Virus record (IMG/VR): IMGVR_UViG_2778261638_000005
Location: 6,684-70,683 of that record
Length of the DNA stretch: 64,000 bases
Strand: one strand, 5' to 3'
Source: a virus
Taxonomy: Duplodnaviria > Heunggongvirae > Uroviricota > Caudoviricetes
In this document: one piece after another, positions 12,627-52,642 of the stretch
Position numbering within the stretch: position 1 is the first letter of the stretch
How the letters are laid out: the number at the start of each line of letters is the position of its first letter
The notes under the pieces: model-generated
What the model saw: only the letters and a program-made list of their open reading frames with translations
Database searches by the model: none
Told to the model about the DNA's origin: nothing
Translations under genes and position numbers: made by a program

Positions 12627-12703
12627 GTGGCATTAGCTCAGTCGGACAGAGCAACCGCCTTCTAAGCGGTTGGTCGCAGGTTCGAATCCTGCATGCCACG
12701 CCA
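12627..12703 (+). tRNA. tRNA-Arg (anticodon TCT)
   Basis: Cloverleaf read from sequence: acceptor GTGGCAT/ATGCCAC, D-arm GCTC-AGTCGGACA-GAGC, anticodon stem ACCGC/GCGGT with loop CTTCTAA, T-arm GCAGG-TTCGAAT-CCTGC, discriminator G, CCA. Confidence 0.85.
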
Positions 12704-44568: not shown

Positions 44569-44815
44569 GATGTTCTGTCTCGTCTGCCAGCCGCGCGGCA
44601 CGATTTGCGGCACGGATAGCGGAAAATACCTGCATCGTCTGTTCCTGACCGTGTAACAACCATTCAGCCGTGTTGCGGGCCTGTTGCTCCGTCTGTAATT
44701 CACGGCGCAGCGTCTGGTTATCGTGGCGGGTGCTGTCCAGCCTGTGCCACAACACCCCGGACAGAACGGCGGCAAACACGGCTGCCAGCAGTAAACTTTT
44801 ACTGGCGAAGGTCAT
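44429..44815 (-). CDS. i-spanin (inner-membrane spanin subunit)
   Basis: 128 aa, N-terminal transmembrane helix and coiled-coil periplasmic domain; overlaps o-spanin and endolysin. Confidence 0.6.
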   Translation of the reverse strand: MTFASKSLLLAAVFAAVLSGVLWHRLDSTRHDNQTLRRELQTEQQARNTAEWLLHGQEQTMQVFSAIRAANRAARLADETEHHDAKQKITTAITGDNCSTRPVPAVAADRLRELEKRTRAIGGDPARN

Positions 44816-45317
44816 CCGCCCCCCTGATATTCCAGATAGCCATTTCCACTTCGCGACGGTTCATCAGTCCTTTCCATTTATGGCCTGCGGCAAACACCCA
44901 GCGGGCCATCTGGTCACGCGCTCCGGCGTAATCACCGGCATTGAGTTTTTTCAGCAGCGTTGATTTACTGAATGCGGTAACACCGGTGTTGAAAATAAAC
45001 GTTGCCAGCGCCGTTTTCTGATATGGCGTCAGCGGCACCCTGACAAGACGATCGATTGCCGCATAAACCGGTTTTAAATCACTGTCGAGAAGAGCCATAC
45101 ACTCCGCATGGCTGTAACGGCGCATTTCGATATCCGGCCCGGTATGTCCCACACAGACCGTAAGCACACCGGCAATATCGCGGTAAGGCATATAAGCGAT
45201 ATTTTCCAGATGGATCAGAGACTGACGGGTCATTTCCTGATAACCACCCACACCGCCACCGGCAATCGTTGCCGCCAGCAGTGCGGCTTTCAGTTTTTTT
45301 GGTATCCCCGCCATCAT
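44799..45317 (-). CDS. SAR endolysin, T4-lysozyme-like (Mu lys position)
   Basis: 172 aa; N-terminal signal-anchor-release type hydrophobic segment (LKAALLAATIAGGGVGG) followed by lysozyme-like domain; downstream of C. Confidence 0.75.
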   Translation of the reverse strand: MMAGIPKKLKAALLAATIAGGGVGGYQEMTRQSLIHLENIAYMPYRDIAGVLTVCVGHTGPDIEMRRYSHAECMALLDSDLKPVYAAIDRLVRVPLTPYQKTALATFIFNTGVTAFSKSTLLKKLNAGDYAGARDQMARWVFAAGHKWKGLMNRREVEMAIWNIRGADDLRQ

Positions 45318-45963: not shown

Positions 45964-46174
45964 GGTATTTTTCTCTGTAGCGCCGGCAATGGTGGATAAT
46001 TTCTGGCATATCAACGGACTGCCAGCCTTTCATGTAATAGCTCCCGTGGGTGCCATCGTGCCCTGTGTAATCCATTGGCTTTGGTGGCGGGCCTCCGGCC
46101 TCCCGATGTAATACCTCCTGTTGTAAACGTTCGCGCCTGCCGAACTGAAAGGACGCATCCCACCCTTTACCCAT
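45944..46174 (-). CDS. hypothetical small protein
   Basis: Probable start MGKGWD at 46174, ATG overlapping upstream stop (ATGGGTAA). Confidence 0.4.
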   Translation of the reverse strand: MGKGWDASFQFGRRERLQQEVLHREAGGPPPKPMDYTGHDGTHGSYYMKGWQSVDMPEIIHHCRRYREKYHVQKIQ

Positions 46175-46727
46175 GCAGAACCTCCCGACAGGCGCTGGCG
46201 AGCAGATCCAGACGGTTAAACCAGCCATTCAGATATTTCCCCTGCGAGGCACTGGATTTGATAATCCCTGCGTAATAGCGGGAACGACGCAGGAAGCACT
46301 GCAACAGCAGCCAGTCAGTATCGGCACGCAGAACGGCTGCGCGTGTGTTTTTACCGACGATGCCATCATCATCAACACCTGCTGCCGCCTGGAGGATCTG
46401 AATCGCGCGTTTAACACCGAGCTGAACGGCAGCATCAAAAACGAATAAGGAAACGCCATCAGGCCATTCGTTACACTTTGCCGCCAGCCAGTAATCACGC
46501 CAGTAGATCTGCGCCGCCTGCTCGCGGGTTAAATCCTTAATGCGGGTATCAGGTTTTCCGTCACCGTTAACATCGGTTTTGCCATCAATAACGCCGTCGC
46601 GACGGTCAGAGATACCGTATTTCGTTTCGCCGCCACGGTCAGTGGGATCATCAACATATCCACCTTCAACATCAGGTCGTATAACGAAATTCAGCGAATG
46701 AAGGAATGCAGGGGAAAACTCAGGCAT
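46167..46727 (-). CDS. GH108-type muramidase with peptidoglycan-binding domain
   Basis: 186 aa; GYVDDPTDRGGETKYGIS motif characteristic of glycoside hydrolase family 108; C-terminal PG-binding-like region. Confidence 0.65.
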   Translation of the reverse strand: MPEFSPAFLHSLNFVIRPDVEGGYVDDPTDRGGETKYGISDRRDGVIDGKTDVNGDGKPDTRIKDLTREQAAQIYWRDYWLAAKCNEWPDGVSLFVFDAAVQLGVKRAIQILQAAAGVDDDGIVGKNTRAAVLRADTDWLLLQCFLRRSRYYAGIIKSSASQGKYLNGWFNRLDLLASACREVLHG

Positions 46728-46809: not shown

Positions 46810-47199
46810 TTACAGAAGTGAAGGCTGGTACTGGCGGTATTTCAGCCGTCGCATCCGGCGAATGGCCTTGTAAACCGTATTGAAAGTGACACCATAACGG
46901 GTGGTCAGTTCGCTGACGTTGCGACCGTTAAAATCATTCCAGATACGCAAATCCCGAATCAGCGAGTCCAGAACCTGACCGCGCGGAATGTAGACCTGAC
47001 CGCCCCCCAGATGCTTACAGATAGCCACAACAATCTCCAGTGAATGAGCAGGATCAACACCCAGCCGGGACAATTCCCCGCGCAGTAAATCGTTCAGCTC
47101 CGCCAGCAGTGCCGGAAAGCGTGACGTATCCTCTGCGGGATTGTCAAGATGTGCCAGGATGGTGTCATCCTGCAAATCACCAAATAAATCTTCCGTCAT
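46810..47199 (-). CDS. mor: middle operon regulator Mor
   Basis: 129 aa Mor/C family; upstream of C and lysis genes. Confidence 0.8.
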   Translation of the reverse strand: MTEDLFGDLQDDTILAHLDNPAEDTSRFPALLAELNDLLRGELSRLGVDPAHSLEIVVAICKHLGGGQVYIPRGQVLDSLIRDLRIWNDFNGRNVSELTTRYGVTFNTVYKAIRRMRRLKYRQYQPSLL

Positions 47200-47747
47200 T
47201 GTGCCATCCTCCGCGTCTTTCTGGCATGGGCATAAGCCGCCGTCATGGCATCATAGCCGCGCAGTTCACGACCGGACGGACTGACCGGCAATGGAAGCCC
47301 GTGACGGGAAAAGGCTTCACGAATACAGCGGATGTGCCACTGCTTGAGTGTTTCGAGGACTGTCAGCAGCGTGTCGCCATGACACCACGCCAGTGTGGAA
47401 ACGCCCTGTCCGCCGTTGCGTTTCGCGGTCAGGCGTTGAACATATCTGTCCAGCGCCACATCACCGCCATCGGTAATAAAACCGTCTTCTGCCATCTGCT
47501 GCCAGATTTTATACACCTTCTCGCGGGGTGTGACATGCCCCTTAAACCGACGGCGTGGGTGTTTATTCTGCTTCTTAAAGCCGCGTTCTTTCATGGCATC
47601 GAGCACCTGTTTCAGTTGCGTAACCGTAAGCTCGCGGCAACTGATTTTGCCCGTTTTCTGCATCAGAAAAGCGCGGTAAGTGTCGTCGTCGAGTTGTAGA
47701 TCACGACGGGCGACATGAATTAATTTAATCAGGGATGTGCGACTCAT
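47196..47747 (-). CDS. Mu gp16-like protein (DUF1018-type)
   Basis: Probable start MSRTSLIKLIHVARRDL at 47747 with GGAGG RBS; track ORF extends further upstream. Confidence 0.65.
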   Translation of the reverse strand: MSRTSLIKLIHVARRDLQLDDDTYRAFLMQKTGKISCRELTVTQLKQVLDAMKERGFKKQNKHPRRRFKGHVTPREKVYKIWQQMAEDGFITDGGDVALDRYVQRLTAKRNGGQGVSTLAWCHGDTLLTVLETLKQWHIRCIREAFSRHGLPLPVSPSGRELRGYDAMTAAYAHARKTRRMAQ

Positions 47748-47820
47748 GATCGTACCTCCGGAAAGGGGGCGGTGCTGCAACACCGCCTGTACTATTGATA
47801 ACACTGAAAATGGAGACAAC

Positions 47821-48060
47821 ATGTCTGTAGAAAACAATGCGTCAATCACTTTTAACCTGGTTTCAGGTCTGATGGTGAAACTTGTTCGTAACAAGATTCT
47901 GACAAAGTGGGAAGCTCAATCCATACTGGCCTCTGCAATTCTTGAAAACGTTCAGAACCAGGAGGGGGTTACTGATTCGGATCTTGATGCACTTCGTCTG
48001 AAACTTGCTATGTCGGATTTCAGCGTTGAAAAAGAGCCTCCACAAGACGATCAGGCGTAA
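47821..48060 (+). CDS. hypothetical protein, opposite-strand gene inside Mu early region
   Basis: 79 aa from ATG 47821 with GGAG RBS 5 nt upstream; fills the only gap in the minus-strand early gene array. Confidence 0.4.
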   Translation: MSVENNASITFNLVSGLMVKLVRNKILTKWEAQSILASAILENVQNQEGVTDSDLDALRLKLAMSDFSVEKEPPQDDQA

Positions 48061-48316
48061 TCACGTCTGATGGTTTAAGTCCCAGCCTGCGGCGAATAAA
48101 TGCGTCGCGGGCTTTTTTGTTATCCAGTGAAACTTCATCTGCAATAATATTAATTTCATGCTGGATAATATTCACAGTAACACGAGCAGAAAGCCCTTCA
48201 CGGATAGCAATATCAATAATATCGCGCATACGCTCAAGCATTTTAGCTTTCACCAGTTCTTCATCCAGGTCTTTAGGCGTAAATTTAGTTTCATTATTCA
48301 TATTATTCACCTTCAC
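48020..48316 (-). CDS. hypothetical early protein
   Basis: 98 aa ORF. Confidence 0.45.
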   Translation of the reverse strand: MKVNNMNNETKFTPKDLDEELVKAKMLERMRDIIDIAIREGLSARVTVNIIQHEINIIADEVSLDNKKARDAFIRRRLGLKPSDVITPDRLVEALFQR

Positions 48317-48485
48317 AATTCATGCACGCCGTGTCATCGCCCATATCGCAGTGGTTGCATTTCAGCCCGCCACAATGAGGGCACTCTTTCAGATATTCAG
48401 GGGCTTCATTACCGCAGGTCGGACATGCCTGTTTCACCGTGGTAAATTTCCCCAGCCACGAATACGATGTTTCATTGTTTTCCAT
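48303..48485 (-). CDS. small zinc-ribbon protein
   Basis: 60 aa with CPTCG...CPHCG...CNHC...CMNC. Confidence 0.45.
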   Translation of the reverse strand: MENNETSYSWLGKFTTVKQACPTCGNEAPEYLKECPHCGGLKCNHCDMGDDTACMNCEGE

Positions 48486-49023
48486 TGTTTACCCCCGCCT
48501 GTTCCAGTGCCATAACTGGTGCGTCAGAACAGTCAAGAATGAGATAGCGCAGTACATGGTCGGTGATATTCCATGCGTTTGAGCTGCAAATAAAACGCCC
48601 TGGCCGGATATCAATATAAGCCATCACAAAACGGGGCATTCCCTGTTCGCACATCCTGTTATCCACTTCTGCAACGATGTGAACGGATTCACAGGTCAGC
48701 ACGCCCGTTGCAAACTCTTTTGCCAGCGCGGGGATGGTATTACCTTCCACCCAGGGTAATGAGCGACGCCAGTTGCACCACACCGCATCATCAACAGCAG
48801 GCTGCTCAGTTGCGTTTCGTCTTACAGGCGGCGTCGGACGTGGGCGCGGAACGTCATAAAATCCGTTGCATTCGGTGAGAACACCGGCATCAACCGCATC
48901 ACGCAGGAAATACACCATTGACGAGGGCAGCATATTCATTTTTTCAGCCAGAACCCCGCAGGTCAGACGCCCGTAAGCCCGTAATAATGTGCTGACACCA
49001 TTCAGAACTTTTGCATCAATCAC
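48472..49023 (-). CDS. hypothetical early protein
   Basis: 183 aa ORF. Confidence 0.45.
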   Translation of the reverse strand: MIDAKVLNGVSTLLRAYGRLTCGVLAEKMNMLPSSMVYFLRDAVDAGVLTECNGFYDVPRPRPTPPVRRNATEQPAVDDAVWCNWRRSLPWVEGNTIPALAKEFATGVLTCESVHIVAEVDNRMCEQGMPRFVMAYIDIRPGRFICSSNAWNITDHVLRYLILDCSDAPVMALEQAGVNNGKQ

Positions 49024-49026
49024 CGG

Positions 49027-49581
49027 TTATTCCTCCGTCAGCGCCACAAATTCAGAATGTTTAATGCGCTGGCATTCGGCGGGAACCGGTCCCTTCACTT
49101 CGCCAGCCAGAAGGTACACCGCAAACAAAATGCTGAATCCGTCACGGCTGTGGTGCATTTTCCACACGGACCTGATGTCAAACAGGTCAACGTCGGTAGC
49201 CACGTTAAGTTCATTGCACAGCCAGCGCGGAAAATCCGGGTTTTTTTCGAGCTGATTTTCACAGTCCCGGATGAGCTTCCCGTACTCACGGCCTGCCGGT
49301 ATTGTCATATCCGGCATTGCGCCCCATAACTGAATATCACCAATGAAAAGTGTCCTTGATTTAATCTCCCATCCTTCCGGTGGTAAGTAGCTAAACCAGA
49401 CATGCGTAACCCTCTCAGGCCCTTTGTCACCAGACAAAGACACACCGATTGCTTTCACTGATTGCTGTAATGACTCAATAATCTCACCACGCTTAACAGA
49501 AACCTCTTTCAGCCAGCGAATCGTATAACCGTTAGCGGCTGTGTCACTCAGTTTAAAATAAGCACATGCTTTCATTTTCAT
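49027..49581 (-). CDS. hypothetical early protein
   Basis: 184 aa ORF. Confidence 0.45.
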   Translation of the reverse strand: MKMKACAYFKLSDTAANGYTIRWLKEVSVKRGEIIESLQQSVKAIGVSLSGDKGPERVTHVWFSYLPPEGWEIKSRTLFIGDIQLWGAMPDMTIPAGREYGKLIRDCENQLEKNPDFPRWLCNELNVATDVDLFDIRSVWKMHHSRDGFSILFAVYLLAGEVKGPVPAECQRIKHSEFVALTEE

Positions 49582-49672
49582 TCTCTCCGGTTCTGATTAA
49601 GGCGCGAGTAGTCCTCTGACGCATCGCGCCATAATTAAACGAATGTGAATTAATTAAATATTAATGGTGGTA

Positions 49673-50197
49673 TTAAATACCGGCTTCCTGTTCAAACGGA
49701 ATAATGGAAAAATCTTCAATTCCCGATTTAACCGTAATTCCGGCAACACCTGCGACGGCTTTTGGTTCCAGTAAAATCGCCTCCTTGTTGATTTCCTGCT
49801 TCGTGCGAATAAAGCGTTGCAGGCCAAGACGCTCCAGCGTTTCCATCACTGCATCCATACCACGAATACTTACTGATGGTGGACGGACCCGCCACGATAC
49901 ATCACCGGTGACAAGATTCGCCGTCTTCACTTTGCCGCCGTTCGTCAGTTCGTCGCGGTTCGCTTCACACCATCCCTGAACGCCTTTTGAAAGGGTTTCA
50001 ATATCGGTTTTAATCGGTGCAATTCGGGCCGCAAATTTCTCCGTAATTTCCGCGATGGCATCATTCATTTCCGTTTCCAGACGTGATGCTTCGCGCTGTA
50101 AATCCCCGATGCGTTTAATATCGGTAATCACCGCATCGCGGTTTTGTGGCACATAAGCCGCTGCGGCACTCTTGATACGTTTTGCTGGTTTAGCCAT
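49673..50197 (-). CDS. gam: Gam, Ku-like DNA-end-binding host-nuclease inhibitor
   Basis: 174 aa; N-terminus MAKPAKRIKSAAAAYVPQNRDAV matches Mu Gam as recalled. Confidence 0.8.
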   Translation of the reverse strand: MAKPAKRIKSAAAAYVPQNRDAVITDIKRIGDLQREASRLETEMNDAIAEITEKFAARIAPIKTDIETLSKGVQGWCEANRDELTNGGKVKTANLVTGDVSWRVRPPSVSIRGMDAVMETLERLGLQRFIRTKQEINKEAILLEPKAVAGVAGITVKSGIEDFSIIPFEQEAGI

Positions 50198-50216
50198 AAA
50201 TTAAAGCTCCTGTTAA

Positions 50217-50516
50217 TTAATATCCGCTGTATACAATGCTGGATACAGCTCGATTGCTTAATTCCATCTTTCGGGCAATGACATGAATATCCAGTCCTTC
50301 TTTATAAAGTTCACGACATAAATATTTGTCGTGTTCACTGATTCGGTATACACACAATGATATTCCGTGCCTTCTGGCATGTGCCCGGAGGGCGGTTGTG
50401 GCGACTTTCAGTTTTTCCGCCATTTCTTCAACGGTCATTTTCCCGACGTTGGCTTCGATAAATTCCCGGTCTTCGCGTGACCAGCGCTTACGATTATACT
50501 TCATGTCAGCCACCAT
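50217..50516 (-). CDS. putative DNA-binding early protein
   Basis: 99 aa, HTH-like MTVEEMAEKLKVATTALRAHARRHG. Confidence 0.4.
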   Translation of the reverse strand: MVADMKYNRKRWSREDREFIEANVGKMTVEEMAEKLKVATTALRAHARRHGISLCVYRISEHDKYLCRELYKEGLDIHVIARKMELSNRAVSSIVYSGY

Positions 50517-50936
50517 TCAGTACAGCAGAGGCTCGCGCAGTGATGCCGGAATATGCCGCAGCGATAACTGAACCGCTTTCAGGGCAAGCGAGGAATAACA
50601 GCAGCGCGCCCAGCCTTTTGCCATTAACCGGTAATCGCGCCAGATACGCTGCCACATTTCACGGGCTTCAGGGTCTGATGCGCAGATGTATTCCCGGTCC
50701 ATGACGTACTCCCATAAATCCACGTTGAACGCACCGCCAAATGCAATGGCGCGGGATATGCTTTCGCCGCAATAACGCGCACAGATGCTGTAATGGTCGA
50801 AAGCAATCAGGTAAGTCTTTTCACCACAATCATCAACTTTTCGGGCGCAAATAAACTCGCGTAATTCACCACCGTTGTTATTGCGTTCCTGAATTCGGAT
50901 TAATGCCTGAATTTCATTTCGGATTTTGACGTTCAT
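50517..50936 (-). CDS. hypothetical early protein
   Basis: 139 aa, Cys-containing. Confidence 0.4.
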   Translation of the reverse strand: MNVKIRNEIQALIRIQERNNNGGELREFICARKVDDCGEKTYLIAFDHYSICARYCGESISRAIAFGGAFNVDLWEYVMDREYICASDPEAREMWQRIWRDYRLMAKGWARCCYSSLALKAVQLSLRHIPASLREPLLY

Positions 50937-50956
50937 TGTCAGCGTTCCTTTGCGAA

Positions 50957-51226
50957 TTAATGTTTAACCACATTCACCGGACGTGGTACTAAATCACATT
51001 CAGCTTCCATACCCACTTTCTTCATAGTGGTCAGCATCTCATCTTTGGCCTTTTTAATAATTTCAGGAGCCATAGTCAGGACTATATTTGCCAGTAAATC
51101 ATGAGGCCCGGTATTTTCCGTTGGCGAGATATCTGCAAGACATGCTTTTGCATCCAGAACTTCTCTGCGCCCATTGCAACTGTCACTACTTTCCAGCCAT
51201 GTAAACTCAAAGATAACCTTTGCCAT
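50957..51226 (-). CDS. hypothetical early protein
   Basis: 89 aa ORF. Confidence 0.4.
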   Translation of the reverse strand: MAKVIFEFTWLESSDSCNGRREVLDAKACLADISPTENTGPHDLLANIVLTMAPEIIKKAKDEMLTTMKKVGMEAECDLVPRPVNVVKH

Positions 51227-51246
51227 TTTTCTTCTCCTTATTGATT

Positions 51247-51492
51247 CTAAATAACTGCGCTGGCTTTTACCTTCGCGCCTTTTACCTGCTTAAAGAAAAC
51301 TGCGCTGCACCACGGACAACATGTCAGGGAATCCCGAATTTCCTTTTCGGGTGAGCATTGCGTCATAATCTGTTCACCGCATCCTGGGCATTTATATGTC
51401 GTCAGCGGCACCCCGTGGCACTGACAGTGTTTAACCCATTCAATATATTTTTCAGCTTTAATACACATCGTTATCTCCAGATAATCTGGCAA
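51247..51492 (-). CDS. small zinc-ribbon protein
   Basis: 81 aa, CQCH...CPGCG...CCPWC. Confidence 0.4.
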
Positions 51493-51698
51493 CCATTAAG
51501 ACGGGCCGTCCATACAGAACGGGCCACCCCGGACTTATGCTCCATAATTCTGACCGCGTTTTTTACCAGTTCCACCGGTGGGTAAGTGATTTCAAGAATC
51601 GGACGCGCCACGCCGAGATATGATTCATTTACATGACTCCCGCGCGCCTGTAACCAGTTCTGCGCATCCGTTGCCATTTTTATATTTCGTGACATCAT
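51471..51698 (-). CDS. small early protein at the Mu kil position
   Basis: 75 aa, first gene downstream of B. Confidence 0.4.
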
Positions 51699-51709
51699 TA
51701 TTTATCCCC

Positions 51710-52642
51710 TTACCACCAGTTCAGTAATTTCGGGTTGCTGTAAACCTCTTTAAAAGCTGCTTTAATGTAGCCTTTGGATAGAGGAACGCCTTTCCCGCTG
51801 GCAGCCAGCCACGCCTGATTCAGCGTATGAGTTAATACACGTAATGCACCTGGTTTTTCCGCGATGCTCTGCATGAGTGATAATTCATCTTCGCCCTCAA
51901 TGCCCCAGGCTTTCGCAATTGCCACCACGTCAGCCTTTTTGGCTTTACGTAGTTGCTTTGTTCTGGCGAAACGACTGAACAAACGTGCAAGGTCATCTGT
52001 TCCCCGGTGTGTGGCTTTGGCTAACTGGTGTGGGTTGCCAATCAATACCATCCCGACGCCGGTTGCATCCTGAATGGCGCGTAACTGCTCCAGCCCGTCC
52101 ATGCTCAGGTGGTCAGCTTCATCCACAATAACCAGACCGCGTGTGCCATTCAGTTTTTTGCGAATGGCGCGGGTCAATGCGCCTTTATTCCTTTGCGGAT
52201 TATCAATTCCCAGCGCGTCTGCCAGCTCCAGCAGACACTCAGTCACTGTTGAGTGTGCAGGGGAAAGGGTCACCATCCAGGTATTAGATACACGGTTACT
52301 GTATTCACGGGCCGCAACGGTTTTACCAACACCCGGCACACCAACCAGAACGCTGATACAGCCCATAACACGCACGGTCTGAAACAGCTCGCGCAAATCA
52401 CGGAGGGTTTGTGTTTCCACAAGTTGTGGTGCGCCAGGTAACTCCAGACTTTTTTGCCAGCTCTGATGCCACATCAGTAATTTGTCATGCATCCCTTCGG
52501 TATCACCTTTGTAACGGCCTTTGCGAAGTTCAGAAAGAGTGGCCTCCGACACCCCCGCTTCTTTAGCAATAGCGCTTTGTGTTTTTACGCCGTCAGTAAT
52601 AAGTGTGTTAATCGTGTTGAAAACATCATTAATATCGGTCAT
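51710..52642 (-). CDS. B: transposition ATPase B (target DNA activator)
   Basis: 310 aa; Walker A GVPGVGKT, Walker B LVIVDEADHL; N-terminal HTH; downstream of transposase. Confidence 0.9.
   Translation of the reverse strand: MTDINDVFNTINTLITDGVKTQSAIAKEAGVSEATLSELRKGRYKGDTEGMHDKLLMWHQSWQKSLELPGAPQLVETQTLRDLRELFQTVRVMGCISVLVGVPGVGKTVAAREYSNRVSNTWMVTLSPAHSTVTECLLELADALGIDNPQRNKGALTRAIRKKLNGTRGLVIVDEADHLSMDGLEQLRAIQDATGVGMVLIGNPHQLAKATHRGTDDLARLFSRFARTKQLRKAKKADVVAIAKAWGIEGEDELSLMQSIAEKPGALRVLTHTLNQAWLAASGKGVPLSKGYIKAAFKEVYSNPKLLNWW

Follow-up and report, generated by a model that had tools for sequence, protein, structure and literature searches.

The accessory region of phage Mu that lies between B and gemA/mor (genes 5–16; AF083977/NC_000929) is referred to as the semi-essential early (SE or SEE) region. 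It comprises 14 ORFs of largely unknown function, is located on the early transcript and is lethal to the host; when it is deleted, infected hosts are viable again (PMC3325207, PMC3820752, PMC4553209). Dispensability for plaque formation and toxicity to the host upon expression are known for the SE region of Mu only (PMC3325207). Cells become spherical when Mu kil is expressed (PMC3961180). The Mu record describes Gam as shielding DNA ends against digestion by host exonucleases, which amounts to a counter-defence activity. A literature search found no functional study of Mu gp6–gp9 or gp11–gp15.

Identity and gene content of the block

The block considered here is situated in a window of 64,000 nt from an IMG/VR virus record (IMGVR_UViG_2778261638_000005), to which all coordinates refer (Table 1). 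Gene identity, synteny, purifying selection and mosaic structure were all observed, and the block is very probably the SE operon of a complete Mu-family prophage. The limits of that prophage were placed by comparison with an empty site; a search with presumed Mu end sequences gave no match. The prophage is inserted within the replication gene (P) of an E. coli lambdoid prophage.

It is apparent that the order B, ten SE genes, GemA and Mor, all on one strand, is that of Mu and of related loci in NCBI and ENA assemblies. Co-oriented small genes thus fill the interval between B and gemA/mor of a Mu-type transposable phage, and both kil and gam are among them. The early accessory region of a Mu-like phage that the first-pass annotation had recognized, with Gam correctly identified, corresponds to the SE/SEE region of the literature. 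The ten minus-strand ORFs between B and GemA are separated by gaps of 2, 20, 20, 12, 19, 91, 3, –14 and 1 nt, so that 95% of positions 48020–51698 is coding, in agreement with the ten tightly coupled small genes of that annotation. An eleventh gene was missed. GemA begins at the ATG at 47747, and not at the TTG at 47894 from which the region had been said to start; the result is a gap of 272 nt, within which a gene lies on the plus strand. No Rfam match was obtained within the region.

Several of the ORFs are very short (60–93 aa) and were without a Pfam match in the copy scanned, as might be expected if some were not genes but reading frames left open by chance in a compact region. This is extremely improbable, since all ten match a PHROG family at E values below 1e-33 (range 1e-33 to 1e-103), intact homologues exist at 33–90% identity, and the same ORFs were called by gene callers in independent assemblies. 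In addition, Ka/Ks against diverged homologues is below 1 in all eight measurable genes (0.06–0.81); values are 0.06–0.25 across kil, gam, gp8, gp9 and the flanking gemA; for the gp7-position cassette, o3, the sequences compared were too close to be informative.

With the ten ORFs taken as genes, the proteins map one-to-one onto Mu gp5–gp14. Seven are 93–100% identical to Mu Kil, gp6, gp8, gp9, Gam, gp11 and gp13; another two represent divergent gp7 and gp14 alleles, and the remaining one is an extra cassette. Mu gp12 is absent. Gam had been described as the only recognizable product, which is incorrect because Kil is recognizable as well, as are the others just named. Nothing was seen that is at odds with the SE-region identification, and the functional side is thin, with 8 of the 10 products lacking an established function.

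Table 1. Features of the SE block and its surroundings, in window coordinates
Feature	Position	Strand	Size	Evidence or remark
Mu-family prophage, complete	19092–56000		36.9 kb	Ends from empty-site comparison
B (transposition ATPase), opens block	51710–52642	–		PF09077 Phage-MuB_C and AAA_22; 44% identity to Mu B
kil (Mu gp5 type), host-killing	51471–51698	–	75 aa	98.6% identical to Mu Kil; phrog_2743, E 5e-43
gp6 (old name E5), candidate Cys4 zinc-ribbon protein	51247–51468	–	73 aa	100% identical to Mu gp6; phrog_3786, E 1e-40
o3, gp7-position cassette, divergent allele replacing Mu gp7	50957–51226	–	89 aa	phrog_2230, E 6e-35
gp8 (old name E7)	50517–50936	–	139 aa	95.7% identical to Mu gp8; phrog_3690, E 4e-97
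gp9 (old name E8)	50217–50504	–	95 aa (99 aa if start 50516)	99% identical to Mu gp9
gam (gp10), Ku-like DNA-end-binding host-nuclease inhibitor	49673–50197	–	174 aa	PF07352, E 4e-42; 100% identical to Mu Gam
o7, extra cassette, putative remote DUF5420 relative	49027–49581	–	184 aa	Absent from Mu
gp11	48472–49023	–	183 aa	GTG start; 93% identical to Mu gp11; PF25754 Gp11_C, E 3e-39
gp13 (old name E14)	48303–48485	–	60 aa	Four CxxC pairs; 95% identical to Mu gp13; phrog_5584, E 2e-42
gp14-type allele	48020–48301	–	93 aa	44% identical to Mu gp14; phrog_6075, E 4e-36
gp15-type gene	47821–48060	+	79 aa	Acidic (pI 4.4); opposite strand to block; 41-nt overlap with end of gp14-type gene
Intrinsic terminator for gp15-type gene	48084–48123	+		Inside gp14-type coding sequence
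gemA (gp16), closes block	47196–47747	–	183 aa	97% identical to Mu GemA over 183 aa; PF06252, E 1e-31

Conserved genes and their proposed roles

[quoted passage not shown] As B is only 44% identical to that of Mu, regulation upstream could differ. The ‘semi-early’ promoter that precedes gemA in Mu falls partly inside a replaced cassette. The Mu literature suggests that Kil would kill the host and round its cells, and that Gam would act as a Ku-like dimer capping linear DNA ends, thereby blocking RecBCD and other exonucleases. The remaining SE products would be small accessory proteins.

Strong purifying selection is seen in a conserved core consisting of kil, gp8, gp9, gam and gp11. For kil, Ka/Ks is 0.06–0.11, and the family Kil_protein (PF26843) was found on the 75-aa product at the kil position in related loci. 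Gam (Ka/Ks 0.06–0.16) scores 144 bits against PF07352, for which the cut-off is 28.3, and covers profile positions 2–148 of 149; it belongs to that family. In the case of gp8 (Ka/Ks 0.12–0.21), no domain was recognizable, an AlphaFold model built with 13 sequences was unreliable (pLDDT 46.7), and those homologue clusters that bear names are all from Enterobacterales. The gp11 protein (Ka/Ks 0.08–0.31), which carries the Gp11_C domain, has a C-terminal tail derived from Mu gp12. The gp12 gene itself has been deleted, and a 22-bp junction at 48504–48525 stands in place of the 531 bp that it occupies in Mu.

A helix–turn–helix (HTH) had been noted earlier in gp9. Its sequence suggests that gp9 is probably a tandem-HTH protein, which would bind DNA via its two HTH units. 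It matches phrog_323 (‘transcriptional regulator’) with an E value of 2e-28; 10 Pfam and 4 NCBIfam matches, mostly to HTH-type families, all fell under the curated cut-offs. These sub-threshold HTH matches cover two places, residues ~9–50 and ~64–95, and a PDB search gave a weak hit to 2lvs, a tandem-HTH protein. The C-terminal segment CRELYKEGLxIxxIAxKMELS is invariant among homologues down to 46% identity, and Ka/Ks is 0.13–0.25.

Two products, gp6 and gp13, are putative zinc-knuckle proteins, metal binding being suggested by their cysteines. For the first of these, the most likely start is the ATG at 51468, and not the TTG at 51492 used by the first-pass annotation. The Cys4 zinc ribbon proposed there for gp6 is supported at the level of sequence: the CPGC...CPWC of gp6 is retained as CPAC...CPFC in a homologue of 33% identity, i.e. 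the pattern CPxC-x20-CPxC is kept whereas the other cysteines vary. Pfam and NCBIfam zinc-ribbon matches to gp6 were all under cut-off; Phage_Mu_gp6 (PF26833) was found on the equivalent product of two related loci, and Ka/Ks is 0.13–0.44. A single Cys4 site had been proposed for gp13 too. Its cysteines, however, number eight, all invariant and arranged in four CxxC pairs, which makes two metal sites more likely. Models of the double zinc ribbon and of DnaJ CxxCxGxG gave weak matches to gp13. The gp13 module forms the C-terminus of a protein of ~230 aa in two related loci, and Ka/Ks is 0.22–0.40.

Variable cassettes and the question of counter-defence

A second set of genes turns over rapidly; it consists of the DUF5420-like gene (o7), the gp7, gp14 and gp15 alleles, and gp12, which is variably present or absent. 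The o3 product gave no BLASTP match to Mu gp7, and no DNA match to Mu was found in window positions 50952–51206; Mu gp7 touches phrog_2230 at an E value of 0.009, and the two proteins share the start MAKVI. The gp14-type allele (Ka/Ks 0.39–0.54) is 59% identical to the D108-type allele present in two related loci.

The o7 product had no direct match to DUF5420 (PF17457) at E values up to 0.1. A profile built from it reaches two proteins, P0042 and P0052, at E values of 3e-9 and 6e-4, and these score 48 and 67 bits against the DUF5420 cut-off of 26, so that the link of o7 to the family is transitive. DUF5420 is a family of no known function that occurs in SfMu and other Mu-type prophages; o7 resembles it in length (~180–190 aa) and in phage context. 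No mention of DUF5420 was found in the literature searched. The predicted fold of o7 is confident, and a fold search with the model returned no neighbour in the PDB. That o7 might be a diverged gp12 was considered and rejected, as hhalign gave the pair a probability of 0.6% and both genes occur together in some loci. A hairpin between gam and o7 lacks a T-run, and its stability only marginally exceeds that of shuffled sequence (z –2.2).

The gp15-type gene is the positional counterpart of Mup15 (NC_000929). It has a GGAG 5 nt upstream of its ATG, and the identical 79-aa protein has been called across many public assemblies. The protein and its Mu and D108 versions are collinear, with 26% identity, and each of them touches phrog_32893. 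Its terminator consists of an 11-bp stem with 8 G–C pairs, followed by TTTTTTGTTAT; the hairpin also appears in the minimum free energy fold of 48055–48130 (76 nt, –24.3 kcal/mol, z –2.4), and in Mu a hairpin and T-run occur at an equal distance past the gp15 stop. An orientation antiparallel to the early operon, with its own Shine–Dalgarno sequence and a strong terminator, and the retention of this arrangement in Mu and D108 despite 26% protein identity, would suit a moron that the resting prophage expresses, with a role in lysogenic conversion or superinfection exclusion rather than in lytic takeover of the host. Expression in lysogens has been reported for the neighbouring gem operon, according to work cited in PMC3820752. 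This explanation is nevertheless rather improbable: a consensus scan upstream of the gene found no promoter, the curated Mu record AF083977 has, in place of this ORF, one on the opposite strand, and no homologue of known function was found for the protein.

Mom, the anti-restriction function of Mu, is encoded at the opposite end of its genome. The first-pass annotation had regarded the early block as the most likely site of novel anti-defence activities in the window. Pfam, PHROGs, NCBIfam, PADLOC, ten PDB sequence searches and two fold searches revealed no function for the uncharacterized genes, and no link to defence or anti-defence. The PDB sequence searches (eight single proteins and two profiles) returned nothing below an E value of 0.04, PADLOC gave no meaningful match (two marginal ones, for gp9 only, at ~0.009), and none of the ten products belongs to a defence or anti-restriction family known to Pfam or NCBIfam. 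The expectation is thus unsupported.

It could still be argued that at least one uncharacterized gene specifies a novel inhibitor of some bacterial defence system, produced early so that the host would be disarmed ahead of replication. The best candidates for such an inhibitor would be the variable cassettes, i.e. the DUF5420-like gene and the gp7, gp14 and gp15 alleles. These loci turn over among otherwise near-identical phages, and they form part of an early operon adjoining Gam; no small gene is conserved outside phages whose Gam is at least ~73% identical. Moreover, Ka/Ks is raised in the gp14 allele (see above) and in o7, for which a value of 0.45 was obtained in locus L050, where gam and gp11, equally diverged at synonymous sites (Ks ~0.58), gave 0.09 and 0.20. 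In another locus, L038, Ks is 0.13 for o7 and 0.57–0.68 for its neighbours, which points to recent horizontal exchange of the cassette. Relaxed constraint, however, would explain the raised Ka/Ks just as well; no similarity to a known defence or anti-defence protein appeared in the sequence and fold searches, and the established anti-restriction function of Mu, Mom, maps elsewhere. A new inhibitor is for these reasons unlikely. Somewhat less likely again is the proposal that the hypervariable cassettes are arms-race genes, one or more of which may provide a new counter-defence function or an exclusion function encoded by the prophage; the candidates would be the DUF5420-like gene, the gp7-position allele and the convergent, overlapping gp14/gp15 pair (47821–48301). 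The variable loci are, all the same, the only reasonable places in which to seek arms-race functions, and are a sensible first target when Mu-type phages are screened for host-interaction or counter-defence genes.

Comparison with Mu and related prophages

The block is ordinary, in that roles are known for two of its products only (Kil and Gam) and the analysis revealed no new anti-defence activity. All ten products are early proteins of the Mu family, and the two just named are the only ones with established functions. The first-pass observation was thus partly confirmed and its interpretation partly supported. As it stands, the result is a rediscovery of the classical Mu accessory region and of little significance; its residual value is as a pointer to the fact that most SE genes are still without a function forty years after their discovery.

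Neither the block nor the prophage is new. The block is the classical Mu accessory region, carried by a prophage that is already in public databases. An IMG/VR contig, UViG_2563366982_000009, shows 100% protein identity in every gene tested, with no difference found at the protein level, and the gene arrangement of the NCBI assembly GCA_013057845.1 equals that of the block. Mu-type prophages with this type of block were observed in E. coli and Salmonella assemblies.

The block shares position and orientation with the SE region of Mu, and its DNA is 97% identical to that of Mu over 48276–48503, 48526–49038, 49592–50951 and 51207–51703. It differs from Mu in that the gp7 and gp14/gp15 alleles have been replaced, gp12 has been deleted and a 553-bp DUF5420-like cassette has been added between gam and gp11, while the adjoining B is the divergent version noted above. 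Yersinia phage vB_YpM_Tongde (MT591577) is collinear with the block, with 98% DNA identity over 48276–50951, and it too carries the DUF5420-like cassette and has lost gp12; unlike this prophage, it has Mu's own gp14/gp15 and lacks the o3 cassette. The block is thus a mosaic, in which cassettes have been exchanged at short junctions that resemble ribosome-binding sites.

Gene content and identity with the semi-essential early region of Mu

Ten consecutive minus-strand ORFs were listed between the gene for a MuB-type ATPase and the GemA gene, with starts chosen to match homologues (see table). From kil to the gp14-type allele, the intergenic gaps are 2, 20, 20, 12, 19, 91, 3, -14 and 1 nt, so that 95% of 48020-51698 is coding, and each of the ten ORFs matches a PHROG family (E values between 1e-33 and 1e-103). 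On both counts the tight block of small genes described in the first-pass annotation is correct. An Rfam scan of the block region found no RNA family; the sole Rfam match in the whole window is a tRNA gene outside the Mu-type prophage.

Features of the block and its surroundings, with protein identity to the Mu counterpart and range of Ka/Ks
Feature	Position	Strand	Identity to Mu	Ka/Ks
MuB-type ATPase gene (B)	51710-52642		44%	
kil	51471-51698	-	98.6%	0.06-0.11
gp6	51247-51468	-	100%	0.13-0.44
gp7-position cassette	50957-51226	-		
gp8	50517-50936	-	95.7%	0.12-0.21
gp9	50217-50504	-	99%	0.13-0.25
gam	49673-50197	-	100%	0.06-0.16
DUF5420-like gene	49027-49581	-		0.45-0.81
gp11	48472-49023	-	93%	0.08-0.31
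gp13	48303-48485	-	95%	0.22-0.40
gp14-type allele	48020-48301	-	44%	0.39-0.54
gp15-type gene	47821-48060	+		
Glyco_hydro_108 + PG_binding_3 gene	46167-46727	-		
Lysozyme gene	44799-45317			
tRNA gene	12627-12700	+		

A megablast search of phage records gave matches at 88-98% identity to Mu, D108 and SfMu, as well as to several Mu-type phages of Yersinia, and the annotated Mu record was used as the reference for a one-to-one protein comparison. Eight of the ten products match Mu proteins in this comparison (see table), and the proposed accessory early region of a Mu-like phage is confirmed; Kil is recognisable in addition to Gam, which had been considered the only identifiable product. Downstream, GemA and Mor are 97% and 99% identical to those of Mu, in contrast to B. 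The block is the region named semi-essential early (SE or SEE) in the Mu literature. In Mu, this region comprises 14 orfs with functions 'largely unknown' (PMC3820752); host killing after infection is due to it, and its deletion brings viability back to 100% (PMC3325207), while expression of kil results in spherical cells (PMC3961180). The sequence of the block is already known: an identical block is public, IMG/VR locus L017 being 100% identical in every gene, and NCBI assemblies contain the same gene series.

The limits of the prophage, 19092-56000 (36.9 kb), were set by comparison with E. coli WP3-S18-ESBL-09, a genome without the element; the insertion lies in the gene for replication protein P of a lambdoid prophage. 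The junctions are 19091/19092 and 56000/56001, with GCAC at both, and the inverted repeat AAATCATTTGATAC is found at the prophage ends; the Mu end sequences used as queries were not found. Between mor and the gp18-type gene lies a Glyco_hydro_108 gene, a second muramidase beside the lysozyme, which Mu lacks; among the comparison loci it is present in L007, L008, L010 and L012 and absent from L009 and L011.

The gp15-type gene and the start of gemA

The start of gp16 (gemA) had been placed at TTG 47894, but by homology to Mu GemA the gene starts at ATG 47747. The 272-nt space upstream of the corrected start contains a plus-strand ORF of 79 aa (pI 4.4), missed in the first-pass annotation. We take this gp15-type gene to be real. 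Its ATG is preceded at 5 nt by GGAG (Shine-Dalgarno), and 24 nt past its stop are an 11-bp G+C-rich hairpin and a T-run, a predicted intrinsic terminator (element to 48123) that falls within the gp14-type coding sequence of the other strand. Many assemblies call an identical protein. No promoter was found upstream.

Public Mu records disagree at this position. The RefSeq record NC_000929 has a plus-strand counterpart, Mup15, whereas the GenBank record AF083977 has Mu_54, an unrelated ORF on the early strand. An open plus-strand frame is kept in Mu, D108 and the window, and the encoded proteins align collinearly at 26% identity, each of the three touching phrog_32893; in Mu, moreover, the stop is followed at equal distance by a hairpin and T-run. 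Conservation across the three favours Mup15. Between the oppositely directed starts of gemA and the gp15-type gene is a perfect 7-bp-stem hairpin (GGCGGTG-CTGCAA-CACCGCC, 47768-47787). Mu and D108 have the identical hairpin, although the sequence just past it differs in all three.

Sequence motifs and the search for function

The gp6 product contains CPGC and CPWC 20 residues apart. A homologue at just 33% identity keeps both CxxC knuckles, while five other cysteines vary, and the Cys4 zinc ribbon predicted for this gene (at 51247-51492) is well supported by sequence. For gp13, the Cys4 assignment does not hold, since eight cysteines are invariant (Cys8); their arrangement in four CxxC pairs points to two sites. 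In L020 and L053, this module forms the C-terminus of a ~230-aa protein (phrog_6418) without a Pfam match, a fusion which suggests that gp13 normally acts in concert with the upstream gene product. The gp9 product likely contains the HTH ascribed to it: it matches phrog_323 (transcriptional regulator; E 2e-28), has sub-threshold HTH matches at two places and weakly matches the tandem-HTH protein 2lvs, and its second motif does not vary even in homologues as distant as 46% identity, although no curated threshold was passed.

Scans of the uncharacterised products against Pfam, NCBIfam and PADLOC gave only Gp11_C for gp11, weak zinc-ribbon and HTH matches, and two marginal PADLOC matches for gp9. 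Newer precomputed Pfam families assigned to these proteins take their names from Mu (Kil_protein, Phage_Mu_gp6 and Phage_Mu_Gp12), and ten PDB sequence searches gave no match below E 0.04. The proposal of novel anti-defence genes in the block received no positive support beyond Gam from family scans and PDB searches. The variable cassettes are the only lead from the block worth keeping.

Conserved core and variable cassettes

Eighty IMG/VR loci were collected around Gam. Among phages with a Gam identity of 90% or more, almost every locus has kil, gp8, gp9, gam, gp11 and gemA, whereas gp6 occurs in about half of the loci, gp12 in ~14, gp13 in ~20 and the DUF5420-like gene in 9. Kil and a few others persist just to ~73% Gam identity, and none of the small genes was found in loci with Gam below 70%. 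In L050, where Ks is ~0.58 for all three genes, Ka/Ks is 0.45 for the DUF5420-like gene, compared with 0.09 (gam) and 0.20 (gp11). Gene presence and the spread of Ka/Ks values (see table) indicate a conserved core with a few fast-turnover loci.

Blastn comparison shows a mosaic relative to Mu, in which 47001-47789, 48276-48503, 48526-49038, 49592-50951 and 51207-51703 match Mu at 94-97%. The non-matching segment 50952-51206 corresponds to the gp7-position cassette, whose product belongs to phrog_2230, a family weakly matched by Mu gp7 (E 0.009); both proteins start with MAKVI. Another, 47790-48275, spans the alleles of gp14 and gp15 type. Since B is 44% identical to Mu B and the DNA from kil onward ~97%, a recombination joint is placed in the region of the 11-nt B-kil spacer. 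The same SE genes occur with at least three B types across related loci.

The 184-aa DUF5420-like gene is carried on a 553-bp insertion relative to Mu (49039-49591), flanked on both sides by an imperfectly repeated junction similar to a ribosome-binding site; the cassette ends fall on such junctions. The last 16 residues of its product (ECQRIKHSEFVALTEE, 49027-49074) are near-invariant in 12 of 12 homologues, the sole differences being one F/I and one terminal E/D, while identity otherwise drops to 50%; just the final 12 nt of this stretch are common to Mu. A 22-bp junction (48504-48525) replaces the 531-bp Mu gp12 gene, so that gp11 ends in the gp12 tail VNNGKQ. Among related loci, the insertion and gp12 occur in all possible combinations, so they are independent cassettes. 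Yersinia phage vB_YpM_Tongde has the same 553-bp insertion and the same gp12 loss as the block.
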